Translations under genes and position numbers: made by a program
Shown: positions 2,518 through 48,182 of the stretch, piece by piece
How positions within the stretch are numbered: position 1 is the first letter of the stretch
Layout: every line of letters begins with the position of its first letter
Virus genome (UHGV): UHGV-1378817
Strand: one strand, 5' to 3'
Length of the DNA: 64,000 bases
Source: a virus
Notes under the pieces: generated by a model
The model's database searches: none
Told to the model about the DNA's origin: nothing
The model's input: the letters and a program-made list of their open reading frames with translations, nothing else

Positions 2518-2594
2518 TGGTCTCCACGGAGTGATTCGAACACTCGACCTCCTGATCCCAAATCAGGCGCTCTACCAAGCTGAGCTACGCGGAG
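2518..2594 (-). tRNA. tRNA-Pro (anticodon UGG)
   Basis: Minus-strand cloverleaf: 7-bp acceptor stem, anticodon stem CCUGA/UCAGG with loop UUUGGGA, T-loop GTTCGAATC, encoded CCA. Confidence 0.7.
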
Positions 2595-2605
2595 TATTTA
2601 TTATT

Positions 2606-2680
2606 TGGTGGCCCTGGGTGGAATTGAACCACCGTCTGGCGATTATGAGTCGCTTGCTTGAACCTTCCAGCTACAGGGCC
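2606..2680 (-). tRNA. tRNA-Met (anticodon CAU; could be a lysidine-modified Ile tRNA)
   Basis: Acceptor stem GGCCCUG/CAGGGCC, anticodon loop CUCAUAA, T-loop GGTTCAATTCC, encoded CCA. Confidence 0.6.
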
Positions 2681-2681
2681 A

Positions 2682-2757
2682 TGGTGCTGATAGCAGGACT
2701 CGAACCTGCAACCTATTGATTACAAATCAATTGCACTACCAATTGTGCTACATCAGC
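2682..2757 (-). tRNA. tRNA-Thr (anticodon UGU)
   Basis: Acceptor GCUGAUG/CAUCAGC, anticodon stem AUUGA/UCAAU with loop UUUGUAA, T-loop GGTTCGAGTCC, encoded CCA. Confidence 0.65.
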
Positions 2758-2762
2758 AAAAA

Positions 2763-2861
2763 GGTGCTAGGTGATGGAATCGAACCACCTATGTATTCAA
2801 CGACTACCTCGTCTATTTTCAGGATTAAAAATCCTCGCCCTTGCCAAAGGGCTTACCTAGC
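2763..2861 (-). tRNA. type II (long variable arm) tRNA-like gene, anticodon ambiguous
   Basis: Good acceptor stem (GCUAGGU/ACCUAGC), D-arm and T-arm (GGTTCGATTCC) plus a long variable arm, but the anticodon arm only forms a 4-bp stem with loop UUUUUAA; no encoded terminal A. Confidence 0.4.
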
Positions 2862-2959
2862 TCAGTATGTTGACCATGTTGCTAGTCGGCGATGACGACT
2901 GTAACATTTGATAATCCGGTTCTGCTTCCGGCTTTCGCTTAATTACAAGGTCAACAATA

Positions 2960-3049
2960 TGGCTGAGGGTAATGGAATCGAACCATCATCGAGTCATCCT
3001 CAACGGGACGGTTTTCAAGACCGCTTGAGCACCATTGCTCCCTACCCTC
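2960..3049 (-). tRNA. tRNA-Ser (anticodon UGA)
   Basis: Acceptor GAGGGUA/UACCCUC, anticodon loop CUUGAAA, long variable arm, T-loop GGTTCGATTCC, encoded CCA. Confidence 0.6.
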
Positions 3050-3164
3050 ATTTATAAACAATACTGATAATGACACTGATTTTCGAGCAGTTAGTGACTA
3101 GTATAAACGACGATAAATATCAATGCCATTATCTGTATGATTTATGCATTTAAAACTATAAATT

Positions 3165-3251
3165 TGGTGGGGAGTGGTGGAGTCGAACCACCCGAGTCGC
3201 AATGACAATAGATTTACAGTCTACACCGCTACCTCTACGGGATAACTCCCC
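3165..3251 (-). tRNA. tRNA-Tyr (anticodon GUA)
   Basis: Acceptor GGGGAGU/ACUCCCC, anticodon loop CUGUAAA, long variable arm, T-loop GGTTCGACTCC, encoded CCA. Confidence 0.6.
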
Positions 3252-3255
3252 AATT

Positions 3256-3330
3256 TGGCACCCCGTACTGGACTCGAACCAGTGTCAACGGCTTAGAAGG
3301 CCGCTGCTTTATCCACTAAGCTAACAGGGC
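3256..3330 (-). tRNA. tRNA-Arg (anticodon UCU)
   Basis: Acceptor stem with G-U wobbles, anticodon loop CUUCUAA, T-loop GGTTCGAGTCC, encoded CCA. Confidence 0.65.
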
Positions 3331-44143: not shown

Positions 44144-44298
44144 CAAAATATCAAATTTAAGACACCTAGGACGCTCTGTGGCGTCCTTTTCTTTATCTGG
44201 TGCACGATTGCATACCTTGGACAGGTAATCTCATTATAGAGCGCTTTAGAAAGAATTTGACTGTTTTCCTAAACCACCAACATCTTGAGGTATCATTT

Positions 44299-44520
44299 AT
44301 GAAAATTGTTCTATACGACGATAACGATATTGCTCTCAGTACTGTATATTTTGAAGATGATGATCTGCCAGATTTTCTACGTGTCTCCACATTTGCTGCA
44401 GAATACGGTGTGAGCCGTCAGGCAATGCATAAGTACCGAGAGTATCAGAATTGCTCATGGGCTGAGACCTTTATGCACTTTATCCAACGTAAGCAGGCTC
44501 TGGACCGCAAAAAGCTTTAA
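44299..44520 (+). CDS. small putative DNA-binding protein
   Basis: ORF 44200-44520 trimmed to Met MKIVLYDDND; FAAEYGVSRQAMHKY looks HTH-like. Confidence 0.35.
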   Translation: MKIVLYDDNDIALSTVYFEDDDLPDFLRVSTFAAEYGVSRQAMHKYREYQNCSWAETFMHFIQRKQALDRKKL

Positions 44521-44620
44521 GTGTATATACTTTTTATTTCGAGCGTAGCGAGAACGCACGTCCGTTTTGACCCAAATCACCATACGCTCGGATTTTAACC
44601 AAACCCTCGCGGCGTTTCTG

Positions 44621-45101: not shown

Positions 45102-45317
45102 ATGAAGATAGAAATATTTGGTGGGGCTGACAACACTCGTGGCCTGATTTACCTTGAATTTGATGAATCATACCTGCCAGAGGTGTTAAATATAGACTCT
45201 GTTGCTGAGGCTTTGGGAGTAAACCCTAAAGAACTCCACTCTTGTGCTGAGATCGATGGTTGGGAAGAGACCATGAACATTGATTTCAGTGAAGTAGAGG
45301 ACGAACCGCTGGACTGA
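45102..45317 (+). CDS. small acidic protein
   Basis: MKIEIFGG... 71 aa with GGAG RBS; last gene of the plus-strand block. Confidence 0.4.
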   Translation: MKIEIFGGADNTRGLIYLEFDESYLPEVLNIDSVAEALGVNPKELHSCAEIDGWEETMNIDFSEVEDEPLD

Positions 45318-45446
45318 CACACAATTAGCTGCCCGGCTAAAGTGCTGGAAGCGCACCTATAACACATCTTTCAACTAAATTTCCTACCACCACAATCACT
45401 TACCTCCAACACATGACTGTTTGCTTGTTTAGTGAGCAGTCATGCC

Positions 45447-45474
45447 TTGACATTCTTGCCTATCCTGATAAAAT
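45447..45474 (+). promoter_or_regulatory. sigma70-like promoter reading into a GC-rich non-coding segment
   Basis: TTGACA-16 nt-TAAAAT with no ORF downstream; followed by about 270 nt of unusually GC-rich sequence ending in a G-run and T-rich stretch near 45730-45760. Confidence 0.4.
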
Positions 45475-47725
45475 TAAGTTCTTCTCTTTTCTTTTACCGA
45501 GTAATTCGGGTTTTCTGTTCTCTTCGGTTTGAAGGGGTATGGAGATACACCTGAGTGAACAGGGTGAACAACCGAACCATTGGCTATGGCATTAGCATGG
45601 CGAAGCGGACGGGTGACGAAAGAGGGGCCGGAGGACACCAGTCACTGCCATATGATATATGGGTGATAACCTGAAGAGTCTGAATAAGTGTTTAAGTACC
45701 AGTCAGAGGAAAAGGTGAATGGTAGCCGAAGGGGGAGGGGGGTTTCTTGTATCTTTAATTTGTATATTATGTATACACTTGTAAACCAATATCATCTAGA
45801 TCTGTTTACCACACAAAGTGGATAGAGACAAATATTACCTATTAAACTTGAATTATTTATAGAAAATACCACAACACCACTTAAGTCTTTGATTTTACAC
45901 ACAAATCTTACAGATATTCAACCTCCATATTTAACATACCTGTAACATATTCCATACTCTACCTGCCTGATCAATTTCCCCAACTACATCCCTCATATTT
46001 CCCCTGTCTGTACTACCCTGCCCCACCGGGAGTCCCGTCATATCTGGCTTTCCAGCAAATATCACACCCACAAATATCATGCCTGAAGAGGGTTTCATCC
46101 CATAATACCTGCCTTGCCTGAAGAGCGCTTCATACACCACGTAAATTTTTTAATTGACCTCCCCTGCCCCGCCGGAGAGGTTGGCTTTTCCCACACAGAC
46201 CTGAAGAGTCAGCCAGAAATATCTGAATAGGCCCAGTTCTACCACGATTTTGACCTGACCTACAGGAGCGCTGCCAGGCGGACGAAATGGGAATACTTCT
46301 CATTCTTATAACAATTCTCAAATATCGAGGCAGTGAGGCAAATTAATAGGCCAGGCCGTTCACACAGTGGCACAACATTTGCAACCTATCTTGTGGGGGT
46401 GAATGAGAATACCTATCATTGTGAGAACCATTATCATTACGGGCAATTTAACATAATACCCATTATGCGCACCACTGGTGATACATACAGGGATTGATAA
46501 CACGAGTTACAGTTTACGCATATAACAATCATATTTCTTACTATTTGTGTGGGATATAGTTAGCAGCCGATAGATTAGATATTGACCTGTGGACTTCCAA
46601 CCGTCTAGACGTCTAAGCGCCCACACAACAAGGCTTATACATACATTACTGAATGTAAACAGGGCCGCAAAAATGCTACCATACCAGTTTGTAAATTTTC
46701 ATGCAGCACTTGACAAAGAGGAGGAAAACTTGTCTGACACAATGTCACACAATATGACACAATAACGGCTGTTACCATTCCATATCTCACTGTTTACGCA
46801 TAGACTGTTTACGCCTGGATAGTTTACACCTTGACAGTTTACACAGATATGATAAGCCATGACATTCGTTTGCATGAAAACAATTAGCAAGTTAACAATT
46901 AACAAGTTAATAATATATGACATAATATAAAAGCAGGGCAACTATTAGAAGATCTATAGTTGCCTTGCTTGTTATGTCATGATTAACTAAATACAAGGCA
47001 ACTATGATCTGATTAATAGTTTGCAGACAAACTATCACGGGGGTGATGGTTACTGCTTTTATATTATGTCGCGACTCCGTCGCGCCATGCCATTCGTTTG
47101 CATAGTTGCCTTATTGTTACAGATAAAATAATTGTATTGTTAATTATTTCTTATCTTTCTATTAGTCATCTAATGATTCCGGTTAGTATAGTAACGTACA
47201 GTAAACATTAGACGACTAAATATTTCTATGTTTATGATAACCTATCGTGACAATTCCGGACTGTTTACGAAAAATGTTGACACCTGAGCTGATTTATGTT
47301 ATGCAATTTAAACGAATAATTATTTTATGCAGGTATTGACTATTCCGTTATTCTATGGTTGGAATAAATACTTAGCAAGCTATAGAATGGTGAGCGTACG
47401 TAAATTCTGAGATTTGTCGGCTATAGTTATACTCGATTTTTCACGTAGAACACGCTTTTTGGTTTGTGTAAGTGTATGACTTATAAAGATTTTTAGTTGT
47501 TGACAAGATATTGAAGATGTGCATCAGGTTAAATTTTGTGCAATAGCTGCATTACGTGCAATTTTGGAAGGAAAACTGGTAAAAATAGCACCGATACCAC
47601 ACAATGAAAGGTTATGCAATAGCTATTTTATATGTATATTTGTACAGTGTGCAGGATTGATGGCTCGTCAATTATTCCACTTGCCAGGTAGGGCCGTTTA
47701 TGGTAGGGGAAGAGCAGACAAAAAG

Positions 47726-47744
47726 AAAGGGGCCTAAGCCCCTT
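47726..47744 (-). terminator. rho-independent terminator (minus strand)
   Basis: On the minus strand AAGGGGC-ttag-GCCCCTT followed by TCTTTTT, immediately downstream of the stop of ORF 47763-48182. Confidence 0.5.
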
Positions 47745-47762
47745 GATAATTCAGTTAAAAAA

Positions 47763-48182
47763 TTATAATGATTCGTATATTTCAAAAATCCGATTTGCCA
47801 GGTCGTTACGGTAGCGGAATTTTTCCTCACGTTTGATCATCAGATCTTTAAAGCCGTATTCTTTAAGCACTTCATTAACTTTATGGCGGCATACCTTCAT
47901 ATTATCTTGAGCGTCACCAATAAACTTGTTGCTGTGGTGCATTGCTTTAATTTCTTCTTCCAGGACCAGGGCAACTACCCGTACCGGATCAAGCTGGTAG
48001 GCGGTAACATCGATGCGGCATTGTAGACGGCTTTTAACGTCTGCCACCGGATATACTGCAACCTCTTCCCCGTCAACATTGACAATAATTAGTTTACCAT
48101 CGATTTCGAATCCTTTCGCCGCCGGACCGTGACAAAAAGCGTTATCAAAGCTATATGCCGGATTATTAGATTTAATGTTCAT
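47763..48182 (-). CDS. hypothetical protein
   Basis: 139-aa ORF. Confidence 0.45.
   Translation of the reverse strand: MNIKSNNPAYSFDNAFCHGPAAKGFEIDGKLIIVNVDGEEVAVYPVADVKSRLQCRIDVTAYQLDPVRVVALVLEEEIKAMHHSNKFIGDAQDNMKVCRHKVNEVLKEYGFKDLMIKREEKFRYRNDLANRIFEIYESL

Follow-up and report, generated by a model that had tools for sequence, protein, structure and literature searches.

The DNA at 45447-45745 of the stretch analysed here is, on balance, best read as an independent transcription unit that would yield a discrete noncoding RNA of ~262 nt specific to the genus Vequintavirus. This stretch, 64,000 nt of virus genome UHGV-1378817 (hereafter the window), comes from an rV5-like coliphage (Vequintavirus, E. 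coli). The rV5-like phages find wide use in the biocontrol of E. coli O157 and in collections for phage therapy, and the "non-coding" box of 2.4 kb drawn on the rV5 map has, to our knowledge, never been explained. A phage-encoded small RNA had been proposed at this locus in an initial annotation. The class of the promoter, the edges of the conserved block and the noncoding behavior of the reading frames lend this proposal partial support; a length of ~262 nt is long for an sRNA, and the unit lacks a canonical local terminator hairpin. The start site (~45481) was inferred from its spacing to the -10 element and the 3' end was placed at the G-run/U3. The features of the locus are as follows:

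45412-45444, + strand: conserved hairpin CAUGACUG...CAGUCAUG, lengthened by G-U pairs; 2 nt separate its end from the -35
45447-45474, + strand: σ70 promoter with -35 TTGACA (45447-45452), a 16-nt spacer and extended -10 TGaTAAAAT (45466-45474)
45481-45745, + strand: predicted noncoding RNA of ~262-265 nt, called from its conservation, no Rfam match and no coding-like frame
45481-45497, + strand: 5' polypyrimidine tract CUUCUCUUUUCUUUUAC, predicted to pair with the 3' G-run
45495-45570, + strand: 5' hairpin, long and imperfect, one arm of pyrimidines and the other of purines (-27.2 kcal/mol, z = -3.3)
45577-45608, + strand: hairpin with a variable internal loop that holds the majority of polymorphic sites
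45648-45662, + strand: small hairpin CCAUAU-GAU-AUAUGG with a variable loop
45731-45742, + strand: G5AG6 cluster with TTT after it, at which the invariant block stops on its 3' side, one G off human CSB II
45743-45930, no strand assigned: T-rich tail and then AT-rich DNA (GC 0.29-0.36), a candidate zone for termination or for unwinding of the DNA
45930-46250, + strand: C-rich, G-poor stretch (GC skew to -0.67), rut-like

A near-consensus promoter without a credible reading frame downstream

The promoter had been annotated as TTGACA-16-TAAAAT at 45447-45474, which is exact: TAAAAT occupies 45469-45474 and the TG of the extended -10 falls at 45466-45467. With a score of 11/12 it is the top site of a 5-kb scan. 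It belongs to a real class of promoters used throughout the phage. The window holds 20 sites that score at least 11/12, as against 1.8 ± 1.3 in shuffled sequence; all 20 of these near-consensus σ70 sites share the strand of the local genes, and the one at 45447 is the last in the + strand series. In L004, the most divergent relative, the -35, the TG and the -10 are intact, the spacer has been rewritten and has grown from 16 to 18 nt, and three of the six discriminator bases have changed, with identity returning exactly at CTTCTC, the predicted +1. At 81% identity genome-wide, the spacer and discriminator are altered and the sequence is identical from the predicted start site on.

Equally correct was the claim that no ORF follows this promoter. 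Only ORFs of 39-58 aa with GTG or TTG starts lie downstream, none of them with a Pfam or PHROG match, and most relatives annotate nothing there. The locus has the near-consensus σ70 promoter without a credible downstream ORF that is looked for in an sRNA gene. A small protein-coding gene was considered and rejected. The segment might encode one or more very small proteins, from the 18-aa ORF at 45539, the 21-aa ORF at 45720 or a minus-strand 54-aa ORF at 45638-45474. Such short ORFs are present, some depositors have annotated them (HMD-6, Mangalyan), and purine runs resembling Shine-Dalgarno (SD) sequences are common in the segment. Against this, G45582A makes a premature stop in the 18-aa ORF in five sequences, G-run indels (+2, +1 and -1) would shift the frame of the 21-aa ORF, six of the nine changes in the 39-aa frame are nonsynonymous, as are most changes in the other frames, and the SD-to-AUG spacings are poor. 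With no family matches, and with invariance at all three codon positions that is unlike coding sequence, we regard a protein product as extremely improbable. Judged by its sequence, no reading frame of the segment behaves as coding.

Conservation runs from the predicted start site to the G-run

Among 20 distinct sequences, 45481-45742 has 11 variable columns, and identity over the segment is 98.2% or more in 118 of 118 Vequintavirus records. Variable sites number 4-5 per 100 nt in the segment versus 17-50 in the flanking genes. The invariance begins at 45481 and stops at 45744, at the G-run, and these sharp edges are seen again in different lineages; the conserved block stops at the G-run even where the downstream DNA has been replaced, as in relatives of the Mangalyan/CYGL type. 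When the window is compared with two genomes of 92% identity, the segment is among the most conserved 1.3-1.6% of 265-nt windows. The directly adjoining gene drops to 87% amino-acid identity. The segment is 98-99% identical in the relative of 81% overall identity; much of a 2.4-kb gene-free region, at whose edge the unit lies, is likewise 91-99% identical there, so that the conservation could in part stem from a region acting in cis or from a tract of recombination. A 262-nt RNA conserved like the most conserved coding windows compared would be expected to serve a core, genus-defining function. The 118 genomes that carry the segment come from many countries and many hosts.

The predicted RNA is an orphan, with no Rfam family and no homolog outside the genus in our searches. 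At gathering thresholds, Rfam 15 recognized only six tRNAs at 2.5-3.3 kb in the whole window, a permissive scan (E ≤ 10) of 45300-47800 returned nothing in 45447-45760, and ARAGORN found no tRNA or tmRNA at the segment. A blastn search (word size 11, E ≤ 10) of 50,697 phage records returned only the 118 Vequintavirus copies. Exact-pattern scans of IMG/VR, of 185,579 genomes and of a metagenome collection yielded only 4-5 further contigs, all near-identical. A 22-nt probe from the segment hits Vequintavirus contigs only in the viral, metagenome and genome collections and would make a practical Vequintavirus marker. No RNA homolog was detected by nhmmer in loci of Seunavirus, Mydovirus, Certrevirus, Phapecoctavirus and A7_1, and synteny traced through the DsbA-like neighbor led to a different context in 4MG, PVP-SE1 and KNP2. 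For the right-hand neighbor, gp159, Phapecoctavirus and A7_1 have homologs of 87-92% identity that are also followed by gene-free DNA, and that DNA contains neither an RNA homolog nor an analogous layout. Mimicry of a host sequence was rejected, with no match to the segment in 5,426 E. coli genomes.

Composition and the predicted 3' end

The segment had been described as ~270 nt of GC-rich sequence. Its GC content (49.2% over 45481-45742) does exceed the window average of 42.8%, at the 96th percentile, and the 39% of the gene-free region; the true oddity is its G-richness and strand asymmetry. From 45536 to 45742 the + strand is 35.7% G, 15.9% C and 66.7% purine, and this G content is the maximum among 207-nt windows on either strand of the 64 kb. 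At its 3' end the segment has GGGGGAGGGGGG (45731-45742), and TTTCTTGTATCTTTAATTTG comes next. This G5AG6 is the sole G4NG4 cluster of the window and its G4Hunter maximum (1.84), and in relatives its length varies (G7AG6, G5ATG6, G5AG5, G5AGAG5). No direct or tandem repeats were found inside 45481-45745, and an internal motif, GGUGA, that occurs four times ~50 nt apart was set aside as not significant after correction (P = 0.28).

The G-run and T-rich end noted in the annotation are both present here, and the T-rich tail is missing from Mangalyan-/CYGL-type relatives. These carry different sequence immediately after GGGGGGTT, and in Mangalyan-type phages only UU remains past the G-run, with no U-tract. 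A terminator scan found no local GC-rich hairpin with a U-tract at the RNA 3' end; it returned only a weak 5-bp hairpin at 45497-45509. The last 100 nt of the RNA fold no better than shuffles (z = +1.2), and the only stem predicted to abut the U-tract is a long-range 5'/3' helix rich in G-U pairs. Relatives of the Mangalyan/CYGL type carry other sequence over the first ~85 nt past the G-run, and 45842-45900 is invariant. Beyond the AT-rich stretch, 45930-46250 contains the G4Hunter minimum (at 46000) and, among all 207-nt windows in the 64 kb, the one richest in C; its resemblance to a rut site suggests a possible Rho-dependent stop for read-through. A giant hairpin between the G-rich RNA and this C-rich stretch 220 nt downstream was rejected, the fold of 45481-46260 having z = +1.8.

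Predicted fold of the RNA

Structure prediction, named in the annotation as a way to check the candidate, gave modest support. With its exact boundaries the whole RNA has z = -1.9, and 8 of 200 shuffles fold equally well. None of 200 shuffles folds as well as the 5' hairpin at 45495-45570, which is invariant in all sequences. The polypyrimidine tract is predicted to form a 15-bp duplex with 45725-45742 (-15.3 kcal/mol), found in both the MFE and the RNAalifold structures; the tract never varies. In the fold as a whole, 80 of the 85 predicted pairs never vary; of the other five, one changes in a compensatory way, two by wobble and two are broken, and the RNAalifold covariation term is 0.01.

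The variable sites fall mostly in loops and bulges of the predicted fold. Six of them (45577, 45578, 45579, 45582, 45597 and 45608) lie in the hairpin at 45577-45608, where L004 replaces C45577-G45608 by U-A, a compensatory change of a kind reached in 20 of 500 shuffles, and where some sequences lose a pair through changes at 45578 and 45597. In the hairpin at 45648-45662 the variable positions 45654 and 45655 are in the loop, and the A-to-G change at 45657 retains a U-G pair.

How the RNA may be made and may act

We propose that host RNA polymerase would make the RNA from the start of infection. Pairing of the 5' polypyrimidine tract with the 3' G-run would clamp the two RNA ends together, and this clamp, with the U residues that follow, would help to define and protect the 3' end; read-through would be halted in the downstream C-rich, rut-like stretch and then trimmed back. 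The purine-rich body, with the 5' hairpin and two small hairpins, would, we infer, act in trans, the likeliest mode being to bind a protein of the host or of the phage. Antisense pairing is probably not the mode, since a search of the 64 kb gave no complementary target: the best matches to a target or paralog are 12 nt and no better than those of shuffled RNA.

Orphan noncoding RNAs of lytic phages include the stable RNAs C and D of T4 and the pRNA of phi29. The RNA predicted here would resemble these in having a host-type promoter, in being untranslated and in being confined to a single lineage within which it is highly conserved. Many stable RNAs that bind proteins have paired ends, and such pairing is predicted for the 5' and 3' ends here. 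By sequence or covariance model the RNA resembles no Rfam family, and it adjoins neither tRNA nor packaging genes. If it acts in trans, a new orphan would join the short list of lytic-phage noncoding RNAs.

A precedent for RNA-level functions in the Vequintavirinae is the pseudo-ToxI of phiTE, an rV5-like Pectobacterium phage, which consists of 1.5 tandem 36-nt repeats beside tRNA and structural genes (PMC3475682). Both are noncoding RNAs (by prediction here) from an intergenic locus. Unlike pseudo-ToxI, the segment lacks tandem repeats, is not syntenic and is 262 nt long, and it is universal in its genus, whereas pseudo-ToxI is an accessory anti-defence element. A ToxI or pseudo-ToxI mimic was rejected: we found no ~36-nt repeats, no Rfam match, no synteny or homology with phiTE and no E. 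coli homolog.

Alternative readings of the locus

The main alternative is a transcript that works in cis at an origin. The promoter would read into a non-template strand very rich in G, the RNA would stay on the DNA at G5AG6-T3 in an R-loop or in a hybrid G-quadruplex of RNA and DNA, transcription would stop at the cluster, and the 3' end would prime or open the AT-rich DNA beyond for the phage replisome. The models are ColE1 RNA II, the T4 origins oriF/oriG and mitochondrial LSP/CSB II. In ColE1 RNA II and T4 oriF/oriG, a promoter gives a noncoding G-rich transcript with a G-run, followed by an AT-rich region. The predicted layout here is the same, with a 207-nt window whose G content is the highest in the 64 kb (67% purine), a unique G-cluster at the G4Hunter maximum, AT-rich DNA directly after it and no canonical terminator. 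The unit also borders the only long gene-free, repeat-rich region in that part of the genome, 2.4 kb with three tandem iteron-like arrays and a large palindrome, which outdoes the neighboring genes in conservation in a divergent relative, and the rV5 authors set their GC-skew switch at this locus. Unlike ColE1 RNA II, the segment has no identifiable antisense partner resembling RNA I and no RNase H/Pol I switch site; unlike the ColE1 and T4 origin transcripts, it lies at a point of transcription convergence, shows no sequence similarity to them and is followed by DNA not kept in all relatives. The ~85 nt replaced in Mangalyan/CYGL-type phages are the very zone in which priming or unwinding would occur. 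Two transcription blocks converge at the locus with the skew polarity of a terminus, so that forks leaving it would meet transcription head-on. DnaA boxes are not enriched, and the palindrome is deleted in FV3. Nor does an R-loop need 262 nt of near-invariant sequence beginning exactly at +1. We consider a cis-acting primer or R-loop transcript unlikely, with an appreciable chance of being right; if correct, it would locate the rV5-like replication origin and provide a bacterial model for CSB II-type termination.

The resemblance to the mitochondrial element is close in sequence. Human CSB II, GGGGGAGGGGGGGTTTG (G5AG7-TTTG), lies downstream of LSP, where it stops transcription and yields the replication primer (PMC4176368), and GGGGGAGGGGGGTTT at 45731-45745, on the non-template strand ~250 nt from the start site, is one G off it. 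CSB II termination is K+-dependent and sensitive to 7-deaza-GTP and has been reported only for the mitochondrial and T7 RNA polymerases (PMC4176368); these are single-subunit enzymes, whereas the polymerase here would be the multisubunit E. coli enzyme. The likeness covers a motif of 15 nt and could be due to chance or to convergence. We give a rather slim chance to a bacterial-virus counterpart of LSP/CSB II, in which an R-loop or RNA:DNA hybrid G-quadruplex would halt RNA made by the host polymerase at G5AG6-T3 and its 3' end would prime or license phage replication in the AT-rich DNA next to it; if true, the rV5-like origin would be found and G-quadruplex-coupled termination would extend to a multisubunit bacterial RNA polymerase.

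The conserved segment could also be a DNA-level cis element, such as a pac/terminase site, an origin component or a platform for phage proteins, with a promoter that is incidental or serves only to open the DNA. The gene-free region does hold further conserved blocks (45842-45900, 46500-46700 and 47000-47100), and the motif CCTGAAGAG has 8 copies on the + strand versus 0.63 expected, one of them in the segment and four nearby. The literature on Vequintavirus transcriptomes and termini yielded no RNA-seq or Northern data and described only headful, circularly permuted packaging, which requires a pac site somewhere in these phages. Yet a DNA element has no reason to begin at a transcription start behind a promoter whose hexamers are kept while its spacer drifts. 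Protein sites are short and usually repeated, whereas here 262 nt of unique sequence is invariant and has no internal repeats; the segment is far from the terminase genes, and substitutions that are loop-biased, wobble or compensatory better match a folded single strand. We therefore hold a purely DNA-level role to be improbable. Still less credit goes to the view that the segment has no function of its own and owes its near-identity to recent recombinational spread or to hitch-hiking in a mosaic segment. Phage genomes are mosaic, other 265-nt windows are equally conserved in single pairwise comparisons, and in L025 the high identity spans ~2 kb. This view has to face identity of at least 98.2% in every one of 118 genomes from many countries and hosts, an adjoining gene at 87% amino-acid identity, flanks with 4-10 times more variable sites, and edges that fall sharply at the start site and the G-run in different lineages. 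A discrete orphan noncoding RNA gene, its ends predicted to pair, remains the reading we prefer.

Neighboring structured elements

The hairpin at 45412-45444 stands between the RNA unit and the upstream operon. It has a folding energy of -20.8 kcal/mol (z = -5.9; 0 of 200 shuffles as good), is followed by no U-tract and is nearly invariant in relatives, with an A-to-G change in L004 that keeps the pair as G-U. It probably either closes the upstream gp158 operon, as its 3' hairpin or terminator, or serves the RNA promoter as an operator. The segment had also been ranked as the most specific RNA candidate in the window, which is not clearly so: a conserved element at 46930-47065 is far more strongly structured (z = -8.3) and is preceded by a promoter-like site and followed by a T-run.

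Genomic setting and promoter

The window is from a Vequintavirus, an rV5-like coliphage, and 120 phage records match the 600 nt around the candidate RNA at 90-99% identity. The rV5 genome paper marks the locus with a grey "non-coding" box, the literature knows it only as such, and no RNA is named at the locus in any record. The same paper reports a change in GC skew at rV5 104425-105475, equivalent to ~45729-46779 of the window.

Features at the left edge of the gene-free region
Left flank, plus strand: long block of DNA-metabolism and small hypothetical genes; last gene rV5 gp158, ending at 45317
45318-47762: gene-free region, 2.4 kb, candidate RNA at its left edge
45412-45444: conserved, very stable hairpin (z = -5.9), ending 2 nt before the -35
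45447-45474, plus strand: promoter; -35 TTGACA (45447-45452), 16-nt spacer, TG, -10 TAAAAT (45469-45474)
45495-45570, plus strand: 5' hairpin of the candidate RNA (z = -3.3)
45731-45742: G-cluster, GGGGGAGGGGGG, then TTTCTTGTATCTTTAATTTG; end of the segment
Right flank, minus strand: block of small early-type genes; last gene rV5 gp159, 47763-48182

The TTGACA-16-TAAAAT promoter of the initial annotation is present at 45447-45474 exactly as claimed, with a TG in addition; it matches consensus at 11/12 positions and is the top site of a 5-kb scan. Across the window, 20 sites reach at least 11/12 matches, versus 1.8 ± 1.3 in shuffles. All 11 on the plus strand fall inside the plus-strand gene block (11.8-45.4 kb) and all nine on the minus strand inside minus-strand blocks, so near-consensus σ70 promoters are genuine in this phage and follow the strand of the genes; the rV5 authors reached the same conclusion. 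The phage is thereby confirmed to rely on promoters of the host type in both its early and its middle regions. The candidate-RNA promoter is the last of the plus-strand series. The hairpin just upstream probably ends or stabilizes the gp158 operon transcript, or is an operator.

Conservation of the segment

We aligned 17 relatives over 6.2 kb and counted variable sites per 100-nt bin. The segment has 4 and 5, compared with 17-50 in the flanking genes and 20-57 in most of the gene-free region. In 20 distinct sequences, four of them from metagenomic contigs, no more than 11 columns are variable within 45481-45742. Identity over 271 nt is at least 98.2% in every one of the 118 Vequintavirus records and at least 99% in 94 of them; the neighboring gp158 protein falls to 87% amino-acid identity. 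Compared with ECP26 and FV3 (92% identical to the window over ~48 kb), the segment is among the best-conserved 265-nt stretches (top 1.6% and 1.3%, respectively), on a par with the most conserved coding stretches of those two comparisons.

Most telling is a divergent lineage (an IMG/VR and a JGI contig) that is ~81% identical overall and 98-99% identical in the segment. Its promoter retains the -35, TG and -10, while the spacer is rewritten (18 versus 16 nt) and three of six discriminator bases are changed. Identity then returns exactly at CTTCTC (45481), the start site predicted from the -10 spacing, a left boundary based on this single lineage. On the 3' side, conservation ends directly after the G-run: in Mangalyan- and CYGL-type relatives, the ~85 nt from GGGGGGTT on are unrelated. 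The strongest argument is a block that runs from the predicted +1 to the 3' motif behind kept hexamers and a drifting spacer, a pattern that points to an RNA gene and is not expected of a DNA site. That the candidate is a discrete RNA gene is the statement best supported by these comparisons, and for an analysis by computation alone the case for function appears unusually clean.

Eighteen records labeled "Campylobacter phage" (MG0656xx, host C. jejuni) match the segment at 98-100% identity; they are probably mislabeled or contaminant assemblies.

Composition and predicted fold

The segment had been described as GC-rich. Its GC content (49.2%) does exceed that of the window (42.8%) and of the gene-free region (39%), but the striking property is strand asymmetry: 45536-45742 is 35.7% G and 15.9% C, the G maximum among 207-nt windows on both strands of the 64 kb, and its purine content (66.7%) is in the top 0.05%. 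The G-cluster is the sole G4NG4 and the G4Hunter maximum of the window. The G-run followed by a T-rich stretch, also described initially, is found in the window as GGGGGAGGGGGG and TTTCTTGTATCTTTAATTTG; the T-rich stretch is replaced by other sequence in the Mangalyan- and CYGL-type relatives.

With its predicted ends at 45481 and 45745, the RNA folds at -82.2 kcal/mol (z = -1.9; 8 of 200 shuffles as stable), compared with z = -1.0 for the original 290-nt guess and z = -0.2 for the minus strand. The small-RNA proposal is partly supported, by the conserved, noncoding promoter-to-G-run unit. The 5' polypyrimidine tract and the 3' G-run are predicted to form a 15-bp helix (-15.3 kcal/mol) abutting the U residues; no local terminator hairpin was found at the candidate RNA. 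Because the sequence barely varies, 80 of the 85 predicted pairs are uninformative. One change is compensatory (C45577-G45608 to U-A, in the divergent lineage; reached in 20 of 500 shuffles), two are wobble-compatible, two pairs are broken in some sequences, and six more variable columns lie in loops or bulges, notably 45579, 45582, 45654 and 45655. The predicted fold is therefore only compatible with the data.

Sequence features of the gene-free region

Other features of the gene-free region, and copies of a 9-mer
45966-46172, plus strand: C-rich stretch, with the highest C content of all 207-nt windows in the 64 kb
46737-46914: three adjacent tandem arrays (10 nt x 2.8, 15 nt x 3.4, 15 nt x 2.4)
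46919-47070: nested palindrome, core 46930-47065 (136 nt), closing arms an 18-nt perfect inverted repeat
45020, 45670, 46082, 46117, 46200: copies of CCTGAAGAG clustered in or beside the gene-free region
21016, 21883, 28516: distant copies of CCTGAAGAG

Downstream of the candidate, the plus strand is AT-rich (45745-45930) and then C-rich, with the G4Hunter minimum (-1.6) at ~46000-46030. The C-rich stretch looks like a rut site and mirrors the G-rich candidate across the AT-rich center; this symmetric skew could stem from a rut site, from a minus-strand transcript or from decayed genes. Pairing between the two was ruled out (z = +1.8). The 9-mer CCTGAAGAG occurs eight times, always on the plus strand, versus 0.63 expected; one copy lies within the candidate RNA and the three distant ones are Pro-Glu-Glu codons inside genes.

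Within the arrays, four WGTTTACRC iterons are spaced at exactly 15 bp (46791-46844), and a lone copy lies at 46511. The layout looks like an origin or operator array, and nowhere else in the gene-free region do relatives vary as much. The palindrome folds at -51.7 kcal/mol (z = -8.3) on the plus strand and -45.2 (z = -8.1) on the minus strand, with a promoter-like site upstream (46899-46926, 10/12 with TG) and CUGCUUUUAUAUU downstream. It is 99-100% conserved in most relatives and deleted in FV3; possible roles are a second small RNA, a bidirectional terminator and an origin cruciform.

Homologs and proposed mechanism

By the membership tests run, the candidate RNA is not part of any described family. 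Rfam gave no match at gathering or permissive thresholds, nor did ARAGORN. No similar sequence was found in non-Vequintavirus phages, even at E <= 10, in 5,426 E. coli genomes or in 185,579 representative genomes; metagenome copies are near-identical ones only. Synteny did not lead to the RNA in other genera: in Seunavirus and Mydovirus the DsbA-like neighbor has another context. The only ncRNA documented for an rV5-like phage, phiTE pseudo-ToxI, consists of tandem repeats and adjoins tRNA and structural genes, and is neither syntenic with nor similar to the candidate, which appears to behave like an orphan, lineage-specific phage ncRNA.

We propose that the RNA would be made by host RNA polymerase early in infection, that the pyrimidine/G-run helix would clamp its ends, and that its 3' end would form at the G-run/U3 or be trimmed back from a Rho-dependent stop. 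Since neither a complementary site beyond chance within the 64 kb nor host similarity was found, it would act in trans through a protein partner and not by antisense pairing.

Alternative explanations

That the segment encodes small proteins is extremely improbable. As initially noted, no credible ORF follows the promoter; six-frame translation gives short ORFs only, none matching Pfam or PHROGs. An 18-aa ORF at 45539 is interrupted by a stop (G45582A) in five sequences, a 39-aa frame has nonsynonymous changes at six of nine substitutions, a 21-aa ORF spanning the G-run would shift frame with the +2, +1 and -1 indels of relatives, and a 54-aa minus-strand ORF lacks an SD and shows Gly-to-Cys, Gly-to-Asp and Pro-to-Ser changes. 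A coding reading was rejected on these grounds. The segment is also invariant at all three codon positions, unlike the neighboring genes. A function-free segment that merely hitch-hikes is very improbable, and a DNA-only element, of which the promoter-to-motif pattern is not expected, is improbable.

The main rival, which we consider unlikely, is a primer or R-loop transcript acting in cis. The non-template strand is extremely G-rich, AT-rich DNA comes next after the G-run, three tandem iteron-like arrays (46737-46914) and the 136-nt palindrome lie in the gene-free region, and the terminal motif GGGGGAGGGGGGTTT is a single G away from human mitochondrial CSB II (GGGGGAGGGGGGGTTTG). At CSB II, an RNA:DNA hybrid G-quadruplex halts transcription and makes a replication primer (PMC4176368). 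However, 262 invariant nt from +1 are more than such a mechanism requires, some relatives have other DNA right after the G-run, transcription converges on the site and its skew resembles that of a terminus, FV3 has lost the palindrome, and CSB II-type termination is documented for single-subunit polymerases only. A phage analogue of LSP/CSB II priming would be of high interest if true but is distinctly unlikely. We favor the discrete RNA gene.

Neighboring genes

Homologs of the small hypothetical protein gp159 (47763-48182, minus strand) in Phapecoctavirus (subfamily Stephanstirmvirinae) and the A7_1 clade share 87-92% identity with it, far above expectation for phages so distant, and its gene is the last before a 1.5-2 kb gene-free stretch in each clade. 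In the gene-free DNA beyond these homologs, the candidate RNA was not found by blastn or nhmmer. The gp159 gene is directly followed by a good intrinsic terminator (AAGGGGCTTAGGCCCCTT + TCTTTTTG; 47727-47744, minus strand); the rV5 genome paper did not find the terminators it expected between genes 163 and 164. At ~44254-44528, the window phage carries ~275 nt missing from all 17+ aligned relatives, which extends a 106-aa ORF (44200-44520) without a Pfam match and may be an isolate-specific insertion or a deletion in the other phages. Six clustered tRNA genes (2521-3330, minus strand) are ordinary for rV5-like phages.
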